A DNA stretch of 64,000 nt from Rickettsiales bacterium. Its GTDB lineage: Bacteria > Pseudomonadota > Alphaproteobacteria > Rickettsiales > UBA1997. The notes under the pieces were generated by a model. It had not been told where the DNA came from, made no database searches, and saw only the letters and a list, made by a program, of their open reading frames with translations. The stretch covers positions 189 to 64,188 of the forward strand of contig JAGAUJ010000011.1 in assembly GCA_017620845.1 (NCBI GenBank). The letters are read 5' to 3'. Of this stretch, positions 8,398 through 63,537 are shown one piece after another (positions within the stretch are counted from its first letter, which is position 1; each line of letters starts with the position of its first letter). A program made the translations under genes and the position numbers.

Positions 8398-10077
8398 ATG
8401 ACAGAAATACAAAAAAAATACAGTAAATTATCACTAAAAAAAATACTTGGATTAATATTAATGATTATAACACTTATTATTATAATTACAGCGCCAGATA
8501 TAAAACTTTTATATAGTAAGTGTCCTTGCACGAAAATAAAAAATAGAAATATAAGAAACTTTGTAATGAAAGATATAAATAGAAAAAAATTATTAGATTC
8601 TTGTTTAAGTCCGCTTGATAGTTTTGAATATTATAATAATTTATATAAATCAACAATTAAGGCTATATGTGATTTAGAAGATGGAAAATATATAACAAAA
8701 CAGGATAAAAATAAGTTATTTAATTTGTTAAAACGTGGTAATATATTAAGTCTAAAACAAGATCTAAAAACAATTTCATTAAATATAGTAGATAGCGAAT
8801 CTTTATCAACTAAATTATTTCTTGATGGTTTAGTTAATGAATTATTGTTTCTTGATAAACAAGCAGAAAAGTCATATATTTTAGCAATAGAAAATAATAA
8901 ATTTGTTGGTAAATATTATATTCAATTGGCAAAATTATATAATAAAAATTGCAAATATAAAGATTCAATAAATTCTTTGTTAAAAGTATCTTCAATTTTA
9001 AATAATAATAATGATAGAACTAATATTGAAGATGTTTACATGTTTTTAGGTGATTTATATTTTAAAACAAGAGATTATGAAAATGCTTTGGTTTATTATT
9101 CAAATAATCTTATAACTATTGACGCAAAAAATAAGAATACAGAAAAACATAATGTTGTAACAAAACTTGGTCATATAATGATGATAAGAGGAAATTATTT
9201 TGAGGCTATAAATTATTATAAATATGCTTTAAGTTTAAAAAGTAAAAAAATGTCAAAAGATGCTGAAGTAAGGTTATTGTTAAATTTATCACAAGCATAT
9301 TATAAATATGGTAATTATATTAATGGTTTGAAATTTGCTAAATCTGCTTCACAAAAATCCAGACAAATTCGTGATAAATTATTACACTCAAAAGCGAAGT
9401 ATAATGAGTGTTTAAATTATGAATATTTAAATGATAGTAATAAAGCACAAAGATCTTGTAGCATGGCCTTGAAAGATGGTTACCAATATATTACTGAAAA
9501 TAAAACTGATATTGACGGTTATATAAATATTGGTGAAATGCTTGATTACTCTACTTACGTGAGAAATCCAAAACTTGCAAAAACACATTTTGAAAAAGCA
9601 TTGGGCATGGTCGGTAAAGATGTTTTACAAGAAATATCAATTTTAGAGCAAATTATGTTGATAGATGCATATTCTTCAAGTTTTACAAATGTGCCACAAC
9701 AATATAAGTATTTGAAAAATCTTTATAAAAAACATGATATTGAGTCTGGTTGTTGTAATGTTGTTTTGAATGCTTTTGTAAAGGAGAGGATGGGTTCGCG
9801 AGATGCTGAAAGAGATTATTTGATGGCAGAAATGGACTTGAAAAATAATTATTCACAACTGGCAACATTGTATTCTTATTTAGCAGATTATTATAAAAAT
9901 AATGGCATGTTAAAAAAAGCATTGATTTATGCAAAAAAATTCCATGAATTAAATACACAAATTTATAGATATGATCATCATTATGTAAAATACTCTTTGG
10001 AACAGGTTGAATCTATAACAAAACTTATTGAGCAGAAGGATAGTGCTAAAAAACAAATAAGAAACGTTAAAAAGTAG
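8398..10077 (+). CDS. Membrane-anchored TPR-repeat protein
   Basis: 559 aa. There is an N-terminal TM segment (ILGLILMIITLIIIITA) and repeated A/Y/L-patterned 34-aa units (e.g. DVYMFLGDLYFKTRDYENALVYY, YFEAINYYKYAL). A terminator follows. Confidence 0.55.
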   Translation: MTEIQKKYSKLSLKKILGLILMIITLIIIITAPDIKLLYSKCPCTKIKNRNIRNFVMKDINRKKLLDSCLSPLDSFEYYNNLYKSTIKAICDLEDGKYITKQDKNKLFNLLKRGNILSLKQDLKTISLNIVDSESLSTKLFLDGLVNELLFLDKQAEKSYILAIENNKFVGKYYIQLAKLYNKNCKYKDSINSLLKVSSILNNNNDRTNIEDVYMFLGDLYFKTRDYENALVYYSNNLITIDAKNKNTEKHNVVTKLGHIMMIRGNYFEAINYYKYALSLKSKKMSKDAEVRLLLNLSQAYYKYGNYINGLKFAKSASQKSRQIRDKLLHSKAKYNECLNYEYLNDSNKAQRSCSMALKDGYQYITENKTDIDGYINIGEMLDYSTYVRNPKLAKTHFEKALGMVGKDVLQEISILEQIMLIDAYSSSFTNVPQQYKYLKNLYKKHDIESGCCNVVLNAFVKERMGSRDAERDYLMAEMDLKNNYSQLATLYSYLADYYKNNGMLKKALIYAKKFHELNTQIYRYDHHYVKYSLEQVESITKLIEQKDSAKKQIRNVKK

Positions 10078-10111
10078 ATTGTTGTTTTAGCTGTTTTGTT
10101 TTACTTGAGAT

Positions 10112-10144
10112 TACCCCAAATGTTTGTGTTGGGGTAGTTTTTTG
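10112..10144 (+). terminator. Rho-independent terminator
   Basis: The taccccaa / ttggggta stem (10112-10119 / 10129-10136) is followed by a T-run, 35 nt after the stop at 10077. Confidence 0.75.
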
Positions 10145-10219
10145 TTGTAATTAAACAAATAATTAATTTGATCTTTAATGTTTAAATAATCAATTGGTTT
10201 TGATTTTTAAATTATTGTT

Positions 10220-11452
10220 TTATTTACTTATATAATTTACAACATCATTAATAGCAATTTTTTCCTCCTTACCTTCATCAAGATTTTTCACAGTTAAAAC
10301 ATTACTTTTTACTTCATCTTCTCCAACAATAATCGCATATTTTACACCAATTTTATTTGCCAAATTCATCTTTTTCTTCATATTATTTGCATAAACAAGT
10401 TCAGTTTTTATATTATTATTTAACAACGTATTTTTTAATTTTAAACAATAATTTACTTCATTTTCACTAATCGGAATTACCGCAACTGGTCTAACTTCCA
10501 CAGAATCATTTTCCAACAAAAGCATCAACCTTTCCACACCACTCGCAAAACCAACTGCGGGAGTATCCATGCCACCCATTTTTTTCATCAATTTATCATA
10601 TCTACCACCAGCCAAAACTGTGCTTTGAGCTCCAAGATCAGTTGTTGTAAATTCAAAAACTGTTGAGGTATAATAATCAAGCCCTCTAACAAGATTTGTA
10701 TTTACAATATAATCTATATTCAAAAAAGACAATTTATCTAAAATATTATTAAAAAACTCTTTATCATCATTTGTATAAAAATCACTTATTTTTGGTGCTT
10801 CTAACAATAATTTTTTATCACATTCTTCTTTTGAATCCAATATTCTTAAAACATTTTTTTCAAGCCTAATTTTACTATCTTGCGATAAGTTGTTTTTATA
10901 TTTTTCAAAATATGTTTTTAAAGCAGTTTCAAAATTACTTCTACTTTCTTCGCAACCAAGCGAATTTATTTCAAGAGTTATGTTTTTTAAACCAATAGTT
11001 TTTAAAATTGTATTTGCCATTTGTAAAATATCTACATCACCTAAGTATGTAGCATTTCCAAAATATTCAAAATTTATTTGATTAAATTGTCTATATCTAC
11101 CTTTTTGTGGTCTATCATATCTAAAAGCGGGGCCATAAGAAAATAATTTTAAAGGAAAATTATTATTTAATTCTGGGTTACTTAAAATTGCCCTAACTAT
11201 TCCTGCCGTAAATTCTGGTCTTAAACTTAAAAAATTATCACTTCTATCTTTAAATTTATATATTTCTTTACTTACAACATCGGAAGTGTCGCCCAAGTTC
11301 CTTTCAAATACATCACTGAATTCAATAATTGGTGTAATTATTTCTTTAAAATTGTAAAGTGAAGATATTTTTTTGGCAATATCAACTATAAAATTAAATT
11401 TTTTTATATCTTCATTAAAAATATCCCTTGTTCCTCTAACTGGTTGCAACAT
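10220..11452 (-). CDS. hisS: Histidyl-tRNA synthetase
   Basis: 410 aa with class II motifs: VRGTRD, FRYDRPQKGRYRQF and GGRYD. Confidence 0.95.
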   Translation of the reverse strand: MLQPVRGTRDIFNEDIKKFNFIVDIAKKISSLYNFKEIITPIIEFSDVFERNLGDTSDVVSKEIYKFKDRSDNFLSLRPEFTAGIVRAILSNPELNNNFPLKLFSYGPAFRYDRPQKGRYRQFNQINFEYFGNATYLGDVDILQMANTILKTIGLKNITLEINSLGCEESRSNFETALKTYFEKYKNNLSQDSKIRLEKNVLRILDSKEECDKKLLLEAPKISDFYTNDDKEFFNNILDKLSFLNIDYIVNTNLVRGLDYYTSTVFEFTTTDLGAQSTVLAGGRYDKLMKKMGGMDTPAVGFASGVERLMLLLENDSVEVRPVAVIPISENEVNYCLKLKNTLLNNNIKTELVYANNMKKKMNLANKIGVKYAIIVGEDEVKSNVLTVKNLDEGKEEKIAINDVVNYISK

Positions 11453-11528
11453 AATATTATTTTATTTATTATTTGTTAATTTTATTATTGTATGATTATT
11501 TATTAAGTCAATAGTTTCTTAGTTATTA

Positions 11529-12875
11529 TTATAAATTATTAATATATTTGTTTAATACATTAAATAATTCGTCATTTAATAAATGTTCATTACTTAAAGA
11601 AAATAAACTTTTTTCAAGTTCTTCTACATTAACATTTACCAACAGCGGTTGTAAAGTTTTTACAACAAAATCATCCTTAAAACTTTCATTTACTTTTAAC
11701 ATTGAATATGCACTTTCTTCAATTTCGCCTACACATTCAAAAGGTTTAAAGCCACTTATTCCACATAGTTCTTTAAAGCCTTCAAGTTGTGTTTTATCTT
11801 CAAATAGATTTTTACCAAAAATATTTGTTAACTGCTCTTTATTTAAAAATACTGATAAAATTAAAAATACAAATCTACACTTATCACAATCACAGCACCA
11901 ATGCTCTAATCTATTTTCTATTTTAAAATTTTTATTACAACTTGTAAATACTTCATGATATTGTGTTAATTTAGAAAATAATTTCGCAATATGTATTTCC
12001 GATAAAGGTCTTAAAAATGAAATATAATTCAAGTTTGTTAATAAATATTTTTTAAAGAAATTATTTATTTCTTTTTCAAACTCAAAAGATTTGCTCCATT
12101 GATGGTTTACAACAACATTGGCAAATTCCTTATTTCCAACATTTGCTGATCTTTCATTTGACATTAAAATTGTATCAAAATTATAAATTATAGCACAAGC
12201 AGACATTATAAATGCCAATATTCCACTTATTGGAACGTGTCCATTATAACCACCAATTTGATCTAATATTTTATTTAATTCTAATAATTTACTTGATATT
12301 GTCCTTTTTGGATGAAATGATTTACAACCAGATATCTTTATTGTTTCTTCTATACTTTTAGCAATTCCAATAGAGCAAGTTAAAATGTTTGTTGTATCCT
12401 TAAAAGTTTTAATAATTTCTAATGTTGTAGTTGAGTCTTTACCGCCACCGATAGGAACAACTATTTTATTTATTAAATCTATATTTGATGCGGTATTATC
12501 TATATTTATATTATAAGGAAAATTAATTCTTTCTTTTAAATTAGTAATATTATTTTTACAAGCGAATTCGCCAAGTCCATTAAAGTAGAAATTATTAAAA
12601 AATTCTGCTTGTTCTTTATTTAATTCAAATGTGTTGATTTTTATATTATTTACAACAAATAATTTATAATAACTTATACCACAAGCAAGATGTATGTATT
12701 TAAAAATATTATCTAAAACTTGTAATTCTTCTGTTTTTAATATTTTATTACTTGAGAATTCAATTTTTTCTTCAAAAAATAATTCATTATTATAAGAATA
12801 TTTTAATAAAAGTGTTTTTGTTTTTATATCAAAATTATATGAATCAAAAATAAAGGTCGTATATTTATTTGTCAT
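11529..12875 (-). CDS. Uncharacterised PP-loop-like (adenine nucleotide alpha-hydrolase-type) protein with a C-terminal Cys cluster
   Basis: 448 aa. It has VVPIGGGKDSTTTLE (a variant of the SGGxDS PP-loop), SNERSAN, NHQWSKSFEFE and HWCCDCDKCRFVF. The family is not assigned with certainty. Confidence 0.4.
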   Translation of the reverse strand: MTNKYTTFIFDSYNFDIKTKTLLLKYSYNNELFFEEKIEFSSNKILKTEELQVLDNIFKYIHLACGISYYKLFVVNNIKINTFELNKEQAEFFNNFYFNGLGEFACKNNITNLKERINFPYNINIDNTASNIDLINKIVVPIGGGKDSTTTLEIIKTFKDTTNILTCSIGIAKSIEETIKISGCKSFHPKRTISSKLLELNKILDQIGGYNGHVPISGILAFIMSACAIIYNFDTILMSNERSANVGNKEFANVVVNHQWSKSFEFEKEINNFFKKYLLTNLNYISFLRPLSEIHIAKLFSKLTQYHEVFTSCNKNFKIENRLEHWCCDCDKCRFVFLILSVFLNKEQLTNIFGKNLFEDKTQLEGFKELCGISGFKPFECVGEIEESAYSMLKVNESFKDDFVVKTLQPLLVNVNVEELEKSLFSLSNEHLLNDELFNVLNKYINNL

Positions 12876-25032: not shown

Positions 25033-26244
25033 CTATACTATATTGGCAAAGTTTCCATAAACTGGACCAAATACAGCTGCTATAATCCAACACATTAACC
25101 CACCCATTATAAATAAAATCATTGGTTGTAAAGAACCAACTATTTTATCAATAGAATCATTAATTTCTGTTGTATAGAAATATTGTATATTTTCCATAGC
25201 ATTTTCAATATTACCACTATCTTCACCAACTTTAAACATTCTTTTTACTATAAATGGGAATATATCTGAATCTTCAATACATTTAGATATTGTTTTACCT
25301 TCTGAAACTTTAATTTTTATATATTCTATTTCATTTTTTAAATAACGATTAACAACAACATTGTTTGCTATTTCAATACATTTTAAAACTGGAATACCGG
25401 CAGAAAATGTTATACCAAAGAATTTTGTAAACCTTGATACATCTAATTTAATCATTATTTGTCCTAAAAGTGGGAGTTTTAGTTTGAATTGATCAAACTT
25501 TATTTTGAAAATTTTGTTAAAAAGTGCCATTCTAATAGTAAAAAATATAGCAACACAAGATATAACTATTGTTATAAAATTTCTTTCAATAAACTCAGAT
25601 GTATTTATTAATGCAGTTGTGTAGGATGGGATTGTTATATCTTGTTCTAAAATAAAACCTAATACTTTTGGAACAACAACTTTAAGTAAAATAACTGCAA
25701 CAATAACTAATAAGGATAGTGAAAATATAGGACTTTTTATTGCTTTTATAGTTTTTCTTTTCATTTCCATATTCCACTTTAAGTTTTCATATATGTTTTT
25801 AAAAGCAACATCCAAATTACCAGTTTTTTCACCCATTGCAACAAGATTTACTGATACTTCATCAAATACTTCTGGAAATTTTGATAAAGCAGCAGATAAT
25901 AATTCTCCACTTTTAACCCACTCATATATATTTTGCATCATACTTTTCATTTTTTGGTTTTCGGAAAATGATGCCAAATCTTTTAATGAGTCTAGTAATG
26001 GAACGCCAGCTTTTTCAAATTGTTCCAATGTTATAAATAGTGTTATTAACTCTTTTGCTGTAATTTTTTTATTGGCTAATAAATTTGTTAAAAATGAATC
26101 TTTAATTTCTCTTGCAGAAATTAACATTAAATTAGATTCTGCCAAAATTTGTTCAACAGCATTATCATTTGGTGCTTCTACTTTACCATTTATTATTTTA
26201 TTGTTTTTTGGATCTAATGCTCTATATAAAAAACTTTTACTCAT
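25033..26244 (-). CDS. pilC: Type II secretion / type IV pilus platform protein (GspF/PilC family)
   Basis: 403 aa with two T2SSF repeats and three TM segments. The C-terminus MGGLMCWIIAAVFGPVY is typical. The ATG overlaps the def stop by 8 nt. Confidence 0.8.
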   Translation of the reverse strand: MSKSFLYRALDPKNNKIINGKVEAPNDNAVEQILAESNLMLISAREIKDSFLTNLLANKKITAKELITLFITLEQFEKAGVPLLDSLKDLASFSENQKMKSMMQNIYEWVKSGELLSAALSKFPEVFDEVSVNLVAMGEKTGNLDVAFKNIYENLKWNMEMKRKTIKAIKSPIFSLSLLVIVAVILLKVVVPKVLGFILEQDITIPSYTTALINTSEFIERNFITIVISCVAIFFTIRMALFNKIFKIKFDQFKLKLPLLGQIMIKLDVSRFTKFFGITFSAGIPVLKCIEIANNVVVNRYLKNEIEYIKIKVSEGKTISKCIEDSDIFPFIVKRMFKVGEDSGNIENAMENIQYFYTTEINDSIDKIVGSLQPMILFIMGGLMCWIIAAVFGPVYGNFANIV

Positions 26245-27244
26245 TACTTATTAAATGTTTTTTAACTTTTTTTACAATTATATCTTTTTTTAATTTAGAC
26301 AAATAATCAATAAAAACCTTTCCAATCAAATGATCTGTTTCGTGCTGAATACAGATAGCAAGCAACCCATCTGCATCGAGTGTATTTTGTTTACCCTCTT
26401 TATCAAGATATTCAACAGTTATTGCTTTATGTCTTTTTATAGTTGCTCTTTCTTGTGGAACAGATAAACAACCCTCTTCACTATCAACCATTTCTTCTGA
26501 TTTTTTAGTTATTTTTGGATTTATCAAGAAAAGTGGATTTTTTGAATCGTTTTCTTGTAAGTCTATAACAACCATATTTTTATTTATACCAACTTGATTT
26601 GCTGCCAAACCTATACCTTTACTTTTATACATCATTTCAAGCATTTCATCAAGTGTTTTTTTTATATTGTCATCAATAATTTTAACATCTTCACATTTTT
26701 TTCTTAAAATGTCATTATCATTAATAATATTTTTAATTTTCATGGTATTTATAATATTATTTATAATATCATTTTTTTGCTCTTCGGGTAAATAATCAAT
26801 AAATAATTTTCCATCAAGATAATCAATTTCATGTTGTAAACAGATAGACATTAAACCATCTGCTTCTATTATTTTTTCTTCAAATTTTTCATTAAAATAC
26901 TTAACTTTTACAGTTTTATATCTTTGTATCACTTCTTTTATATTATCAATAGAAATGCTACCTTCTGTGCTATCAACTAATTCGTCAGATTTTTCTATAA
27001 TTTCTGGATTAATAAAAACCAATGGCGTTTTTCTATTATTTTCTTGTAAATCTACAACAATAACTCTTTTATGAACACCTGCCATAACTCCGGCCATACC
27101 AATACCATTATGTTTATAAATAATATTAAACATTGCTGGTATTAAGGTAGATAATTCTTTATCGTTTTTTTCAACTGATTGACTTACTTGTCTAAAAAAT
27201 TCTAAATCTTTTTTATTGTTTATTTTTCTCAAAAAATAAGACAT
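26237..27244 (-). CDS. def: Tandem (duplicated) peptide deformylase: degenerate N-terminal copy plus intact C-terminal copy
   Basis: The C-terminal copy has GIGLAANQVG, EGCLSVP and QHETDHLIG. The N-terminal copy has GIGMAGVMAG, EGSISID and QHEIDYLDG. The ATG at 27244 lies 1 nt after the yebC stop; a TTG at 27256 is an alternative start. Confidence 0.85.
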   Translation of the reverse strand: MSYFLRKINNKKDLEFFRQVSQSVEKNDKELSTLIPAMFNIIYKHNGIGMAGVMAGVHKRVIVVDLQENNRKTPLVFINPEIIEKSDELVDSTEGSISIDNIKEVIQRYKTVKVKYFNEKFEEKIIEADGLMSICLQHEIDYLDGKLFIDYLPEEQKNDIINNIINTMKIKNIINDNDILRKKCEDVKIIDDNIKKTLDEMLEMMYKSKGIGLAANQVGINKNMVVIDLQENDSKNPLFLINPKITKKSEEMVDSEEGCLSVPQERATIKRHKAITVEYLDKEGKQNTLDADGLLAICIQHETDHLIGKVFIDYLSKLKKDIIVKKVKKHLISNE

Positions 27245-27245
27245 A

Positions 27246-27998
27246 TTAACCCTCAATTTTTTCCATTATTTCATCAGGAATTTCATAATTTCCTATAACT
27301 TGTTGAACATCATCATCATCTTCTAATTTTTCTATAAGTTTTAGCAATTTTTCTGCTTTTTCTAAATCATCAACAAGCACTGTATTTTGTGGTTTCCAAG
27401 TAATTTTTGCTTCATCAGGATCGCCCAATTTTTCCATTATAGCATCTCTAACTGCTGTAAATTGTGATGGATCTGTTGTGATTTCATGCCAATCTTCTGT
27501 GCTCTCTACATTATCGGCACCTGCTTCAATAGCGAGTTCAAACATTTCATCGGCAGATATTTTGCTACCTTCATAACCTATAAGTCCAACTTTATCAAAA
27601 TTATATGAAACACTACCACTTTCGCCCAATGCCCCACCACTTTTTGTAAAATACGATCTTACATTTGAGGCAGTTCTGTTTTTGTTGTCTGTTAATGCTT
27701 CTACTATTAAAGCAACTGAACCTGGTGCATAACCTTCATATCTAATTTCTTCATAATTTTCGCCTTCGCCAGCAGTTGATGCTCTTTTTATTGCTGCTTC
27801 AATTTTATCTTTTGGCATATTTTCAGATTTTGCTAATATAACAGCGTTTCTTAATCTTGGGTTAAAATCTGGGTTTGGATCACCCATTTTTACAGCAACC
27901 GTAATTTCTTTTTGAATTTTTGTAAATATTTTTGATCTTTTAGCGTCTGCTGCTGCTTTTTGATGTTTTGTTGTAGCCCATTTTGAATGTCCTGACAT
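27246..27998 (-). CDS. yebC: YebC/PmpR-family transcriptional/translational regulator
   Basis: 250 aa with the N-terminus MSGHSKWATTKHQKAAADAKRSKIFTKI. Confidence 0.9.
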   Translation of the reverse strand: MSGHSKWATTKHQKAAADAKRSKIFTKIQKEITVAVKMGDPNPDFNPRLRNAVILAKSENMPKDKIEAAIKRASTAGEGENYEEIRYEGYAPGSVALIVEALTDNKNRTASNVRSYFTKSGGALGESGSVSYNFDKVGLIGYEGSKISADEMFELAIEAGADNVESTEDWHEITTDPSQFTAVRDAIMEKLGDPDEAKITWKPQNTVLVDDLEKAEKLLKLIEKLEDDDDVQQVIGNYEIPDEIMEKIEG

Positions 27999-58624: not shown

Positions 58625-58803
58625 TTTTTTTGTATTTCAGAATTTAAATATATAATTGATTAAGTTTATTGATTAATAATTTATTGGTGTTGTTATAAAA
58701 TTATAAGTATTGTAATATAATTATTAGTTTTTTATATTTTTTTCTTGTTTTTTAAAAAGTTATCATTATATTGCAATTATCATTTTATCATTTTATAAAA
58801 ATT

Positions 58804-61302
58804 ATGAGACTAAATATTGAAATTAATGAAAAGTTGCAAAATGCAATCAAAAAATATGCAAATAAAAACAATTTAACAATAAAAAATTTTATTACAACAG
58901 CAATAGAAAATGAAATTTATAAAAAAGATATAAAAATAGTAAATAATTTTTCAGTTGGCATAATTTGTGGCGGACCTTCCGCAGAAAGGGGAATTTCTTT
59001 AAATTCTGCGAGATCGGTTGCAGATCATTTGGAAAGTGAAAATATAGAAATAAAAGTATTTTATGTAGATAAACAATTAAATTATTATAAAATAAGTAGA
59101 AATCAATTATATTCAAATACACCATCAGATTTTGACTTTAAACTACAAGAAGATCAGTTATTATCAACACCAGATTTAATAAGTGAACTGAAAAATACAA
59201 CAATAGTTTTTCCAGTAATACATGGTGATTATGGTGAAGATGGAAAATTGCAAGAATTCTTGGAGAAAAATAATATTCCTTTTGTTGGTAGTGGAAGTGT
59301 TGCTTGTAAAAATAGTTTTAATAAAATAAATTGCACTAAAATATTAGATGATAATGGTTTTTACCATTTTCCAGCAGTTTCATTTAGTGAAAATAAAAAA
59401 GAAAATCATAAAATAATTAAAAGGTTTTTTGATTTAAATAAATTAAAAAAGGCTGTTGTAAAGCCTGCAAGTGGTGGTTCTTCAATAGGTGTTTATTGTG
59501 TTTATTCTTATGAAGAAGCAATAGATAGAATGGAAAAATTATTTAAAGATGGAACATCACAAGTTATTGTAGAGCCATTTTGTATTGGAACAGAGTTTAC
59601 AATTATTGTAACACAAAATATAAATAATGGAAAACCAGTTGCTTTGATTCCAAGTGAAATAGAAATGAAGTATGAAAATTACCAAATATTTGATTATAGA
59701 AGAAAATATTTACCAACTGCACAGACAAGATATTATACTCCAGCAAGATTTAATGAAAATGATATTACTAAAATAAGAAGTTATGCAGAAGAAGTATTTA
59801 ATCTAATGGGTCTTAGTGATGTTGTTAGAATGGATGGTTGGTTAATGAAAGATGGAAGGATATGGTTTTCAGATATAAATATTGCTTCTGGTATGGAACA
59901 AAATAGTTTTGTTTTTCAACAATCTTCAAGAATTGGTTTTAGTCATAAAGATTTTGTTTTATATATTTTAAAATCTGCTTGTTTAAGATATGGAATAAAA
60001 ATGCCAGAAGTTGCGACTAACGAAGATAAAAATAAAAAAAATGTGAATGTTTTGTTTGGTGGAATTAATGCAGAAAGACAGATTTCTTTAATGAGTGGAA
60101 CAAATATTTGGTTAAAATTATTGAAATCAAATAAATATTCACCAAAACCATATTTAATGGATAAAAATGGTGATGTTTGGTATTTGCCATATTGCTATAC
60201 CTTAAGTCACACGGTGGAAGAAGTATATGAGCATTGTTTGAATGCAGAAACAGAAATAAATAAAGTGCAATTTTTTATTGATGAAGTATGTAAGGACTTA
60301 CAAATAGAAAATTATAAAATGGAGTTGCCAGTAAAATATAGTTTTGAAGAATTTATGAAATTATCAAAAGAGCAAAATGCTTTTGTTTTTATTGGTTTAC
60401 ATGGTGGAAAAGGAGAGGACGGAACGGTTCAAAAAGCATTAAAGGAACACGGATTAAAATATAACGGATCCGACGAAGATGGTTCAAGATTAGGTATGGA
60501 TAAATATAAAACTGGCGAAGTTATTTCTAAATTAAATGATAGTGTTTTAATTACAGCACCAAAGATTCAGTTCAAATTAGATGATTTTGAAAATTATTCT
60601 TTAAAAGATTATGAAAGTTTTTGGAATAAAACTACAAAAGAATTAAGTTGTAATAATTTTATAATAAAACCAGCAACTGATGGAAGTTCAGCTGGCGCAG
60701 TTAGAATATTTGATGTTAATGAATTTAAAACTTATATTGATATTTTAGAAGAAAAAGCACCACATATTCCTGCAAATACTTTTAAAAATCAAACAACAAT
60801 AATTGAAATGCCAAGTAATAATGAGCAAAATTTCTTACTCGAGGCGTTTATAGAAACTGACGATATAGTTATTGAAGATAAAGATTTAATTTATGATAAA
60901 CGAAATGGCTGGTTAGAATTTACTGTTGGTGTTATTGAAAAAGACGGTATTTACCATTCATTTAATCCAAGTATAACAATTGCAGAAAATAAGGTGCTTA
61001 CTATCGAGGAAAAATTCCAGGGTGGAACAGGTGTAAATATAACTCCTCCACCAGAGTATATTGTGAATGCAAAATTATTGTCTCTAATTAAAGAAAATAT
61101 TGAGAAGGCTGCAAAGGCTATGAATTTAAAAAATTATGCAAGACTTGATATTTTTGTAAACAATATAACAAATAAGATAATTTTGATTGAGGCAAATACC
61201 CTTCCTGGTTTGACTCCATCAACAGTTATTTTTCATCAGGCTTTGGTTGACGGTATGAATCCAAGGGAATTTTTGGAAAAAATAATTGAGATGAAGGAAT
61301 AA
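58804..61302 (+). CDS. ddl: Fusion protein: RHH-like N-terminal segment plus two tandem D-alanine--D-alanine ligase (ATP-grasp) modules
   Basis: 832 aa from the ATG at 58804. The N-terminus is MRLNIEINEKLQNAIKKYANKNNLTIKNFITTAIENEI. Module 1 has GGPSAERGISL, HGDYGEDGKLQ, VKPASGGSSIGV, RMDGW and DINIASGME. Module 2 has GGINAERQISL, HGGKGEDGTVQ, IKPATDGSSAGA, RLDIF and EANTLPGLTPSTV. Confidence 0.8.
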   Translation: MRLNIEINEKLQNAIKKYANKNNLTIKNFITTAIENEIYKKDIKIVNNFSVGIICGGPSAERGISLNSARSVADHLESENIEIKVFYVDKQLNYYKISRNQLYSNTPSDFDFKLQEDQLLSTPDLISELKNTTIVFPVIHGDYGEDGKLQEFLEKNNIPFVGSGSVACKNSFNKINCTKILDDNGFYHFPAVSFSENKKENHKIIKRFFDLNKLKKAVVKPASGGSSIGVYCVYSYEEAIDRMEKLFKDGTSQVIVEPFCIGTEFTIIVTQNINNGKPVALIPSEIEMKYENYQIFDYRRKYLPTAQTRYYTPARFNENDITKIRSYAEEVFNLMGLSDVVRMDGWLMKDGRIWFSDINIASGMEQNSFVFQQSSRIGFSHKDFVLYILKSACLRYGIKMPEVATNEDKNKKNVNVLFGGINAERQISLMSGTNIWLKLLKSNKYSPKPYLMDKNGDVWYLPYCYTLSHTVEEVYEHCLNAETEINKVQFFIDEVCKDLQIENYKMELPVKYSFEEFMKLSKEQNAFVFIGLHGGKGEDGTVQKALKEHGLKYNGSDEDGSRLGMDKYKTGEVISKLNDSVLITAPKIQFKLDDFENYSLKDYESFWNKTTKELSCNNFIIKPATDGSSAGAVRIFDVNEFKTYIDILEEKAPHIPANTFKNQTTIIEMPSNNEQNFLLEAFIETDDIVIEDKDLIYDKRNGWLEFTVGVIEKDGIYHSFNPSITIAENKVLTIEEKFQGGTGVNITPPPEYIVNAKLLSLIKENIEKAAKAMNLKNYARLDIFVNNITNKIILIEANTLPGLTPSTVIFHQALVDGMNPREFLEKIIEMKE

Positions 61303-61373: not shown

Positions 61374-61398
61374 CAACCCACTGGAACAGCCAGTGGGT
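61374..61398. terminator. Bidirectional terminator hairpin
   Basis: The aacccactgg / ccagtgggtt 10-bp perfect stem has a 5-nt loop and lies between convergent genes. Confidence 0.7.
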
Positions 61399-61427
61399 TA
61401 TTATGAAATTAAGTTTATAATTTATGA

Positions 61428-61736
61428 TTAATAACCATAAACTCTTATACAATTACGAGTAATTAATCCGAAACTTTCTATTTTTGTATCGGAACTTACA
61501 ATTTTTTTAATTCCGCCATCTTCAATAGCCTTTATTAAATTTGCATCACCAAATGGTCCAAATAAACCAAGAATAGAAGTTGTGCAACTTTTTCCTATTT
61601 TTATATTTGATATATTAGTGAGATCGGCATCATTAAGTTGTATTGTATTAACAACTGGTTCATTTATTATTGAACAAGCAGATATGCCCAATACAGTAAA
61701 GCCGGCTATTAATAACTTTTTTATACTATTATGCAT
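61428..61736 (-). CDS. Small TRL-like lipoprotein
   Basis: 102 aa with the lipobox LGISAC. GKSCTTSILGLFGPFGDANLIKAIEDGGIKKI...RNCIRVYGY resembles the TRL-like lipoprotein family pattern. Confidence 0.55.
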   Translation of the reverse strand: MHNSIKKLLIAGFTVLGISACSIINEPVVNTIQLNDADLTNISNIKIGKSCTTSILGLFGPFGDANLIKAIEDGGIKKIVSSDTKIESFGLITRNCIRVYGY

Positions 61737-61845: not shown

Positions 61846-63537
61846 TTACAATTTTAAACTAATTCCAAATTTAATACTATTTTCTTTTTTACCTTTTTTG
61901 CCATCAAAGTCTTTATTATATATTCCCTTGCCACACATAAGGTAGGTGTCTAAATGATCTTTATTATAATTTAATACAAATCCAGTGCTGGACATAGTGC
62001 CGTATTTTTCTGGAACCTTATCTTTTACTTGACCGTAATCTAAAAATATTGTAAATTTTAATTTATTATCTAAAAAATTTGCGTAAAAATTATTGTTAAG
62101 ATAAAAACCTTCTTGACCACTTGTTGAATTATCCTTAAAACCTCTTATTGTATCACTATCTAATGATATTAAATTGGCAGTATTTTTAAGTACAAATTTT
62201 TTTATTTTTTGATAAGAAAATTGTAAATTGTAAAACCATAAATTTGTGATTTTACTATTGTAATTCATATCAAGTTTTCCAATGATTTTATCTTTTTTAC
62301 TAACATATATAATTGGCTTTATGGTTAATATTTTATTATTTAATGTGAATGTATTGTTAAAGTATAATTTAAAAATATGATCACTAAAATCTTTATCAAA
62401 TCTTACCATTCCATGTAGATGAAGTAGATACACATGTGTTGTATCAATTGTATCTAGTGTAGTTCTCTCAAATTCAATCGTAAAATCATTTTTGTATTTA
62501 TAGCTGTTATATATAACTCGATTAAGCAAGATAGCAGTATTGTGTTTTTTTTGATTATTGATAACATGTATAACTCCTCCATTAGTAATATGATGTATAT
62601 AGTGTGATCTATTATAATTTATGGCAAATGTATAATATATAAAAGGTATTAATAGGTTAATATTTAATGAATTTGAATATGAATCTTTATTATTGGTAAG
62701 ATCTGTTGTTGTATATTTTATTTGTAAGTTATTATTTGTTCCTAAAAAATCGTCTTGACTTAAAAATATAGAATATTTATCTCTTCCTATGTATTTGTTG
62801 CCCTCGTTATTATAATCAAGACCAACACTTGTTCTTCTTAGTTTTTTATTGTTGATTATTATGTCAGAGTAATTGTATTTATCTGTTTGTGGAGTTATTG
62901 ACATTGTTGCATTATTGCTTCTTAATTTATTAAATTGATCCAATAATAAATTAAGTTCATTTAAATTAAGTTCTTTATTTTTAAGATATGATTTTTGTTT
63001 ACCATTAATTGTAACCTTGTTAATTTTGCCAGTAACAGTATTAAATGTTATAGAACCATCATTTATTTTATCAATATCTATATAAACTACCGTTGTTACG
63101 TAGCCTTTACTGATAAAATAATTTAGTATTGTGTCTCTTAGAGACATTAAATTATTTTTGTTTAAGCATTTGTTTACATATTGTTTTTGTATATATTTGT
63201 TTAATTTATTGAATTTTATGCCATTTAATAGTATTTTTATTGTGTTAATTTGAATACAATTTGTATCGTTTATTGTTTCATCTATTTTTTCATTGTTTTT
63301 ATTATCATAATTGATTTCTCGTTTATTTTTGGCACGTTCTGATCTTGATTTTTTAATTTGAGTTATGGTGTTTTGTCTGTTTGTGTCTTCGTTTTTTTCT
63401 ATAATATCTCTTTGTCTATATATATCATTTCTTGTATTTATTATGTCACTTTCCATATTAACCTTTGCTTTGGATAATTGTGTAGATAAACAGAATAATA
63501 AAATCGTTGTAGATAATATAATTTTTTTCCCTAACAT
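61846..63537 (-). CDS. ShlB/FhaC/HecB-family two-partner-secretion (TpsB) outer-membrane transporter
   Basis: 563 aa with a signal peptide and a POTRA-like segment (..GYVTTVVYIDIDKINDGSITFNTVTGKINKVTINGK..). It has a LDYNNEGNKYIG..-type motif and a loop-6 IRGF motif. Confidence 0.75.
   Translation of the reverse strand: MLGKKIILSTTILLFCLSTQLSKAKVNMESDIINTRNDIYRQRDIIEKNEDTNRQNTITQIKKSRSERAKNKREINYDNKNNEKIDETINDTNCIQINTIKILLNGIKFNKLNKYIQKQYVNKCLNKNNLMSLRDTILNYFISKGYVTTVVYIDIDKINDGSITFNTVTGKINKVTINGKQKSYLKNKELNLNELNLLLDQFNKLRSNNATMSITPQTDKYNYSDIIINNKKLRRTSVGLDYNNEGNKYIGRDKYSIFLSQDDFLGTNNNLQIKYTTTDLTNNKDSYSNSLNINLLIPFIYYTFAINYNRSHYIHHITNGGVIHVINNQKKHNTAILLNRVIYNSYKYKNDFTIEFERTTLDTIDTTHVYLLHLHGMVRFDKDFSDHIFKLYFNNTFTLNNKILTIKPIIYVSKKDKIIGKLDMNYNSKITNLWFYNLQFSYQKIKKFVLKNTANLISLDSDTIRGFKDNSTSGQEGFYLNNNFYANFLDNKLKFTIFLDYGQVKDKVPEKYGTMSSTGFVLNYNKDHLDTYLMCGKGIYNKDFDGKKGKKENSIKFGISLKL

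Follow-up and report, generated by a model that had tools for sequence, protein, structure and literature searches.

A stretch of DNA from a Rickettsiales bacterium (the window, 64,000 nucleotides of contig JAGAUJ010000011.1 in assembly GCA_017620845.1) carries, at 58804-61302 on the forward strand, a gene whose product of 832 amino acids (aa) joins a ribbon-helix-helix (RHH) domain to two complete modules of D-alanyl-D-alanine ligase (Ddl). The two modules are collinear with those of the plant enzyme DDL, the RHH domain is accompanied by short conserved boxes upstream of the gene, and some relatives of the gene stand next to that for alanine racemase (alr). We consider it rather probable that the protein belongs to the plant-type tandem D-Ala-D-Ala ligases, has gained an RHH domain and acts as an autoregulating “trigger enzyme” of the PutA, BirA or NadR type. 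PutA, in which an RHH domain is joined to a proline catabolic enzyme, BirA and NadR provide the precedents for such repressor-enzymes. An earlier note on the same DNA, made from its letters alone, had proposed the fusion of an RHH-like segment to two full Ddl modules and had not recognized such an architecture as a described one.

Two ligase modules and their plant counterpart

The reading frame opens with an ATG at 58804 and closes with the stop codon at 61300-61302. From an in-frame TTG at 58771 the protein would be 11 residues longer (843 aa); since the closest homologs open with MRLNIEI at an ATG, 58804 is likely the true start, and the RHH segment thus lies downstream of it, within the translated protein. 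Behind this segment follow module 1 (58951-59991, forward strand; residues 50-396), with K301-Y302 at the position of Tyr216 in Escherichia coli DdlB and D357-x-N359 as its Mg site, and module 2 (60037-61299, forward strand; residues 412-832), with K737-F738 at the Tyr216 position and E796-x-N798 as its Mg site. The two Mg sites lie in the motifs DINIASGME and EANTLPGLTPS that had been quoted for them, and both are present. Pfam recognizes Dala_Dala_lig_N and Dala_Dala_lig_C twice each (5.9e-25, 88.6 bits, and 2.9e-27, 96.0 bits, respectively, in module 1; 3.5e-19, 69.9 bits, and 1.7e-16, 60.8 bits, in module 2), with cut-offs of 34.6 bits for the N-terminal family (PF01820) and 24 bits for the C-terminal one (PF07478), and the two halves of the protein scanned separately both exceed the gathering scores. 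The NCBIfam model TIGR01205 scores 339 bits vs. a cut-off of 246, and the models for resistance ligases remain below theirs (D_ala_D_lac, 134.9 vs. 550; D_ala_D_ser, 159 vs. 520; VanG, 202 vs. 495).

Both modules of 117 full-length relatives were aligned to E. coli DdlB, whose reference sequence was checked and is identical to 2dln/1iov. Residues E15, H63, K97, K144, E180, E187, K215, R255, D257, and N272 (DdlB numbering) are conserved in both modules of all 117, in agreement with the proposal that each module is complete in its ATP, Mg and catalytic residues, and on this conservation both look catalytically competent. At other positions the modules part ways: that of Tyr216 holds Tyr in module 1 and Phe in module 2 (116/117), the latter within the invariant motif EEKFQGGTG; that of Glu270 holds an invariant Asp in module 1 (D357-I-N359) and Glu in module 2 (E796-A-N798); and the positions of Ser281, Leu282 and Ser150 hold Ser, Phe and Ser in module 1 and Thr, Val and Cys or Ser in module 2. 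The local identity of the two modules is only ~27%, and their duplication is therefore ancient; module 2, with helical and beta insertions, is the more divergent from canonical Ddl. An AlphaFold2 model of the full-length protein, based on an 80-sequence alignment, has a predicted local distance difference test score (pLDDT) of 89.6 and a predicted template-modeling (TM) score, pTM, of 0.87. Sequence and fold searches of the PDB returned Ddl enzymes only, each spanning one module (TM scores of 0.77-0.89 normalized to the target and at most 0.38 normalized to the query), and no tandem Ddl chain was present among the fold-search matches.

Tandem relatives are numerous and widespread, as the taxonomic survey that the earlier note had proposed makes plain. 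A word-indexed sequence search found more than 100 full-length relatives of 780-927 aa, an exhaustive phmmer search yielded 367 clusters (at 50% identity) with E<=1e-30, and patterns taken at the junction of modules 1 and 2, run over the GTDB species with a single genome for each, located 437 loci that encode a tandem Ddl. The best 80 of these 437 loci are all in metagenome-assembled genomes (MAGs) and belong to Rickettsiales, Patescibacteria (the candidate phyla radiation, CPR), Parachlamydiaceae, Coxiellaceae, Bdellovibrionales and others, with Peribacteria, Peregrinibacteria, Gracilibacteria, Saccharibacteria and Paceibacterota representing Patescibacteria among those best 80. Most of the groups that carry the tandem are known to be host-dependent, epibiotic or predatory. 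The architecture is thus undescribed only in part: the tandem itself is already known, in plants and now in 437 species-level genomes, and it is the DNA-binding head for which no description was found. A literature search for the bacterial tandem family, its RHH or helix-turn-helix (HTH) heads and the operator described below found no description of any of them, and relative to that literature the head on the tandem Ddl and the conserved operator-like boxes appear to be new. The exhaustive search also returned longer relatives, of 1262 aa (P0145), 1638 aa (P0178), 1180 aa (P0200), 1876 aa (P0216, with eight matched stretches), and 1580 aa (P0229, with seven), some of them with many Ddl-like stretches or with sizable additional regions, which suggests further fusion architectures in the tandem family.

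Kinship with the plant enzyme spans the whole of the tandem. The plant member among the phmmer clusters, Coffea eugenioides XP_027176337.1 (P0186), aligns in a single stretch (query 45-829, Coffea 77-949; E = 5.7e-161), and BLASTP gives 38% identity over 877 columns, collinear over both modules. Of the bacterial loci compared with it, those that match best (L077, L063, L031, L065, L060) come from Bdellovibrionales, Gammaproteobacteria and CPR, and since all of them are ~41-44% identical to it no donor lineage for the plant gene stands out among these loci. According to published reports, plant DDL is a Ddl-Ddl fusion (PMC9954125) that moss needs for its plastid peptidoglycan, and knockout of ddl in moss abolishes D-Ala dimerization and leads to macrochloroplasts (PMC9954125; PMC7432710), D-cycloserine causes moss to accumulate precursors up to the MurF substrate (PMC9434261), and moss has normal peptidoglycan precursors and plastids that can be labeled with a D-Ala-D-Ala analogue (PMC7432710; PMC9434261). 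The tandem core is, then, of a known kind, for which the moss data provide genetic, if indirect, support for D-Ala-D-Ala synthesis.

Gene neighborhoods point the same way. Neighboring genes were clustered across 82 loci and representatives annotated with Pfam. Alanine racemase is encoded directly 3′ of the tandem gene, on the same strand and after a gap of 2-7 nt, at eight loci of Saccharibacteria, Paceibacterota and related CPR MAGs (L035, L041, L048 at 9122-12627, L051, L056, L061, L072, and L074), where the pair forms an apparent operon, and within 10 kb at 13 loci. A class A penicillin-binding protein is encoded ~2-7 kb from the tandem ddl at 22 loci and a GlmM-like phosphohexomutase upstream of it at seven; no second ddl occurs within 10 kb at any of the 82 loci, and enzymes that supply lactate or serine are not linked to the tandem ddl at those surveyed. 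With alanine racemase so closely downstream at the eight CPR loci, the protein is most likely, by analogy with these relatives, a D-Ala-D-Ala ligase. The non-standard peptidoglycan chemistry at which the earlier note had hinted has nothing in its support, given this pairing and a moss ortholog that is reported to supply D-Ala-D-Ala. At a further locus, in an Alphaproteobacteria MAG (L001, 12408-14656; GCA_030425825.1), a tandem ddl without a head shares an overlap with the start of the gene for an ArsP_1-type permease, faces a gene for a DAO-family FAD oxidoreductase and lies beside a cluster of sugar-nucleotide and flagellin-like genes, a neighborhood that may hint at D-amino-acid handling.

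The ribbon-helix-helix domain and the upstream boxes

The RHH domain (58804-58926, forward strand; residues 1-41) consists of the strand RLNIEI, helix A (residues 9-21), an N-L-T turn and helix B (26-38/42), and is tied to module 1 by a linker of residues 42-49 (58927-58950, forward strand), where the pLDDT of the model dips to 66 and which measures ~10-60 aa among relatives. AlphaFold2 predicts the strand-helix-helix succession expected of such a domain, with residues 1-8 extended and helices at 9-21 and 26-38/42, both in the full-length model and in one of the isolated domain, whose pLDDT is 87-97 over the N-terminal 41 aa. RHH domains are obligate dimers, in which the strand of one chain pairs with that of a second, so that an unpaired strand is to be expected in a monomer model. 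In Foldseek searches against the PDB the top 50 matches are almost exclusively RHH proteins (TM scores of 0.65-0.86, probability up to 0.97), among them CopG (32-34% identity, probability 0.97), the DNA-binding domain of PutA (2ay0, 2gpe; TM scores of 0.80-0.86, rmsd 1.1-1.3), and ORF56, Arc, MazE, AmrZ, VapB, ParG, ParD, and AtaR. The motif (M)RLNIEI-x3-LQ-x2-IK-x-Y-x3-N-x-(S/T)-IK-x-F-(I/V)-T-x2-IE-x2-I is kept in ~30 distinct homologs of 58-93% overall identity, and its most conserved residues, invariant or nearly so, are R2, N4 and E6 on the strand, which in our own comparison with the CopG sequence align with its base-contacting strand positions R4, T6 and T8. Differences at codon positions 1, 2 and 3 of the RHH segment across 11 loci number 559, 228 and 989, and the segment is therefore translated and under purifying selection. 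Predicted fold, structural matches and conserved motif together uphold the RHH assignment, and the same in-frame fusion in more than 30 independent assemblies disposes of the concern that an assembly artifact had joined two ddl paralogues.

Three copies of the heptamer TTATCAT, resembling operator boxes, precede the gene on the forward strand. Box 1 (58760-58766) abuts and overlaps a putative -10 element, and boxes 2 and 3 (58777-58783 and 58785-58791) form the tandem TTATCATTTTATCAT at 58777-58791, in an 8-bp register and 13-27 nt upstream of the ATG, so that all three span -44 to -13; no other exact copy of TTATCATTTTATCAT exists in the window. At all 11 loci that encode the RHH domain, one to three forward boxes, usually as TTATCATTTTATCAT, occur within 120 nt upstream of the start, where 0.06-0.25 per locus would be expected from each locus’s own frequency, and among the RHH-less loci at least two boxes are found in 0/60 and a single one in 2/60. 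TTATCAT is also the only invariant block in an alignment of ten upstream regions, and its extended form, the 14-mer TTATCAT(T/A)TTATCA, occurs ten times in 1.19 Mb (the window plus the loci), nine of these copies being 15-35 nt upstream of the start codon of an RHH-bearing ddl. The tenth copy, TTATCATTTTATCA, is in L014 (~11347-11360, reverse strand), opposite to and inside the 3′ end of ddl, and might serve a convergent gene downstream of it or be due to chance.

A putative promoter of the sigma-70 type, read by eye and of low confidence, can be placed at 58745-58772 on the forward strand (TTGTTT at 58745-58750, a 16-nt spacer, and TATATT at 58767-58772); a scan with the promoter consensus gave no more matches than in shuffled sequence. 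At loci L009, L015 and L024, a clear TTGACA-N17-ATAAT is similarly placed relative to the boxes, one of which falls inside the promoter spacer, with the tandem pair following after the -10 element and before the ATG. Such a layout is typical of the operator of an autorepressor.

A DNA-binding domain of another kind heads about 35 of the 120 best relatives, in which the N-terminal ~100 aa match HTH_3 (34-40 bits vs. a cut-off of 23) and which NCBI and JGI label “HigA family addiction module antidote”; the remaining family members begin directly at module 1. No conserved HigB-like partner was found upstream of the HTH-headed forms and none in the window, and these forms are therefore not toxin-antitoxin modules. 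The small ORFs that do lie upstream of HTH-headed relatives were considered as HigB-like toxins and set aside, having neither a Pfam match nor mutual similarity, and no toxin-like ORF flanks the window gene, whose upstream neighbor encodes RNase PH and whose downstream one, convergent with it, a TRL-like lipoprotein. The HTH_3 head probably arose independently of the RHH one and, if so, the tandem Ddl has been selected more than once to carry a DNA-binding head.

A candidate repressor-enzyme and its alternatives

The mechanism that we favor begins with two ancient and differentiated Ddl modules in one chain, both of them apparently competent, which would supply D-Ala-D-Ala for peptidoglycan precursors. 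In a Rickettsiales-like lineage the enzyme would have gained its N-terminal RHH domain, whose strands would pair between two protomers; the resulting dimers would settle on the directly repeated TTATCAT boxes, which overlap the gene’s own promoter and 5′ leader, and the enzyme would repress its own transcription, possibly to a degree tuned by occupancy with substrate, product or ATP. Observed directly are the architecture, the conserved catalytic residues, the predicted RHH fold, the association of this domain with the upstream boxes, the kinship with plant DDL and the linkage to alr in relatives. We infer D-Ala-D-Ala as the product in this organism, as well as DNA binding, autorepression and ligand responsiveness, with ligand control of the repression being plausible.

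Several observations weigh against this mechanism. On the N-terminal segment all Pfam RHH models stay below their gathering scores, the best sub-threshold matches being ParD (1e-5), DUF6290 (4.5e-5) and CopG_antitoxin (2.6e-3), with DUF6364, RepB-RCR_reg, ParG, RHH_5, Antitox_RHH, 56B_RHH, and HicB further down; these matches are overwhelmingly to RHH families. A profile built from the RHH alignment brought up no significant match among PDB sequences, and the E-values from Foldseek do not go below 0.1-1, owing to the short query of 48 aa. Seven close relatives are without the RHH domain, which is therefore dispensable. The Phe at the Tyr216 position of module 2 is associated with depsipeptide formation in DdlB Y216F and LmDdl2, which we take to be represented by 1iow and 1ehi, both among the PDB fold matches to the modules. 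Lastly, the RHH-bearing loci are related and AT-rich, and part of the conservation of the boxes could reflect shared ancestry; against this caveat, the upstream genes differ among these loci and the sequence surrounding the boxes is not conserved.

Four other explanations seem less likely to us than an autoregulating tandem ligase. The RHH domain might be an oligomerization handle only, pairing tandem chains into a dimer of pseudo-dimers with no DNA binding or regulation, as the obligate dimerization of RHH domains in general, the dimeric state of canonical Ddl, the sub-threshold Pfam scores and the functioning of close relatives without the domain would allow. A mere handle would, however, leave unaccounted for the co-occurrence of TTATCAT boxes with the domain (11/11, vs. 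two or more boxes in 0/60), the fact that the predicted base-contacting residues R2, N4 and E6 are its most conserved positions, and the presence in another clade, at the same place in the chain, of HTH_3, which is not a dimerization handle; we regard this explanation as improbable. Less credible by far is that the N-terminal segment is a functionless antitoxin remnant fused by accident, or an artifact of assembly or annotation. Its best Pfam resemblances are indeed to antitoxin families (ParD, CopG_antitoxin, DUF6290), and the name given by NCBI to HTH-headed relatives is that of an addiction module antidote, but over 30 clusters, which stem from independent assemblies, share the same in-frame fusion, its codon-position pattern of 559/228/989 is that of purifying selection, no toxin-like ORF adjoins the window gene or the HTH forms, and a conserved cis element accompanies the RHH domain, so that a remnant or artifact is largely refuted and can be given very little credence.

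The remaining two explanations concern the modules. They may differ in specificity, with module 1 making D-Ala-D-Ala and module 2 making D-Ala-D-Lac, D-Ala-D-Ser or another product, or extending the dipeptide, which would yield non-canonical termini. Their differences are systematic and family-wide, at the positions of Tyr216, Ser281, Leu282, Glu270 and Ser150, the modules are only ~27% identical, and the Phe at the Tyr216 position of module 2 brings to mind Y216F and F261, which are tied to D-Ala-D-Lac synthesis in DdlB and LmDdl2. Set against these are the scores of the NCBIfam D-Ala-D-Lac and D-Ala-D-Ser models, far below their cut-offs (135 bits vs. 550, for example), the partnership with alr rather than with any linked lactate- or serine-supplying enzyme at the surveyed loci, and the plant ortholog, which has the same module signatures and, reportedly, normal precursors in moss, a D-cycloserine block at the MurF substrate and plastids labeled by the D-Ala-D-Ala analogue. 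Dual specificity accordingly strikes us as unlikely, if slightly less so than a pure oligomerization handle. That one module is an inactive pseudo-enzyme, serving its partner only as a dimer interface or as a site for allostery or sensing, would suit the much greater divergence of module 2 from canonical Ddl, its large insertions, and the general tendency of tandem pseudo-dimers to retire one site; yet both modules hold the ATP, Mg and transition-state residues without exception across the 117 sequences and in plants, and inactive domains rarely keep such residues, which makes a dead module quite improbable.

Beyond the autoregulating ligase itself, a broader proposal can be entertained, although we doubt it more than we believe it. 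The tandem Ddl of host-dependent bacteria might have been converted repeatedly into a ligand-sensing transcription factor, the RHH and HTH versions being independent; each might bind its own promoter and possibly other cell-wall genes and respond when one differentiated site is occupied by D-Ala, D-Ala-D-Ala or ATP, as a direct feedback sensor of precursor supply, and the same bacterial family might be the source of the chloroplast DDL of plants.

Transcriptional control of the cytoplasmic enzymes of peptidoglycan precursor synthesis is poorly understood, and a Ddl with a built-in DNA-binding domain and an identifiable candidate operator offers a testable feedback circuit. Two unrelated DNA-binding folds on one enzyme in different clades argue that self-regulation brings a selective benefit where genomes are reduced, host-dependent and poor in regulators. 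In sequence, the bacterial tandem family also corresponds clearly to the enigmatic DDL of plants; it provides tractable models for why differentiated modules fuse and contributes to what is known of plant peptidoglycan genes and their non-cyanobacterial origin. Because Ddl is the target of D-cycloserine and the tandem form is structurally distinct, the enzymes of Rickettsiales, Coxiellaceae and CPR may, moreover, differ in their behavior toward inhibitors.

Genomic surroundings and known systems

In the window the ddl gene is a stand-alone unit, outside any mur/fts cluster, as had been noted before. IscS-like and RNase PH genes lie upstream, and downstream, both on the reverse strand, are the convergent TRL-like lipoprotein gene (61428-61736) and a gene for a two-partner-secretion transporter of the ShlB/FhaC type with POTRA domains (61846-63537). 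Between the convergent ddl and lipoprotein genes a GC-rich hairpin with a 10-bp stem and a 5-nt loop (61375-61399; dG -17.4 kcal/mol, z = -4.8 in folding) is likely a bidirectional terminator, not called in a strict terminator scan owing to its weak T-tail. Of the promoter and strong terminator that had been ascribed to the gene, the hairpin holds up, and the promoter, matched by consensus no better than shuffled sequence, is of low confidence. An Rfam search of the window returned no RNA element, tblastn with E. coli DdlB matched the two modules and no other ddl in the 64 kb, and no alr was found there. The suggested link to a PP-loop enzyme at 11.5 kb finds no support: the ORF in question (11529-12875, reverse strand; 447 aa) is 47 kb away and matches no Pfam family at E<=0.001. 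Elsewhere in the window, an ORF of 338 aa (26237-27253, reverse strand) matches peptide deformylase (Def) in two separate stretches (Pfam, 319 bits), with the best NCBIfam stretch at 176-331, and may represent a duplicated or tandem Def, or else a Def extended at its N terminus by a long Def-like stretch.

Among known systems, the closest is plant DDL (At-DDL; PpDDL, BAE45860; OsDDL, BAF22630; here Coffea XP_027176337.1), which like the window protein has two collinear modules, with the same residues in each (Y and D-x-N in module 1, F and E-x-N in module 2), and shares with the bacterial family the motifs YSNTPxDFDFKL, YRRKYLPT, SGMEQxSFxFQQ, ERQxSLMSGTNxWL, and EEKFQGGTGxNxTPPP. It differs in having, in place of the DNA-binding domain, an N-terminal extension of ~75 aa, taken as a targeting sequence, in lacking both an RHH or HTH head and a TTATCAT operator, and in being encoded by a nuclear gene with introns. 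Canonical Ddl enzymes (E. coli DdlB, 2dln; Staphylococcus aureus Ddl, 7u9k; Coxiella Ddl, 3tqt) have the same three-domain ATP-grasp fold as each module (TM scores of 0.77-0.89), and all of their catalytic residues recur in each, but they are chains of ~300-370 aa that form homodimers, whereas two differentiated copies are fused here. Another fusion in obligate host-associated bacteria, the MurC-Ddl protein of Chlamydiae (NCBIfam NF011171), joins Ddl to MurC, not to a second Ddl, and its model scores 165 bits on the window protein vs. a cut-off of 1015.

On the regulatory side, the ~45-aa beta-alpha-alpha domain is that of repressors of the CopG, Arc and omega type, and the short repeated TTATCAT boxes recall the heptad repeats bound by omega; those repressors, however, are small stand-alone proteins, unlike a domain tethered to a 790-aa enzyme, and have G-x-(S/T) at the turn where N-x-(S/T) is found here, in a domain that leaves the Pfam thresholds unreached. 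Like the window protein, PutA, BirA and NadR are metabolic enzymes headed by a DNA-binding domain at the N terminus; their operator sites lie in their own promoters, to which the putative operator-like boxes upstream of ddl would be the parallel. PutA recognizes GTTGCA sites and switches by association with the membrane, and it differs from the tandem ligase in its unrelated catalytic domains and its pathway.

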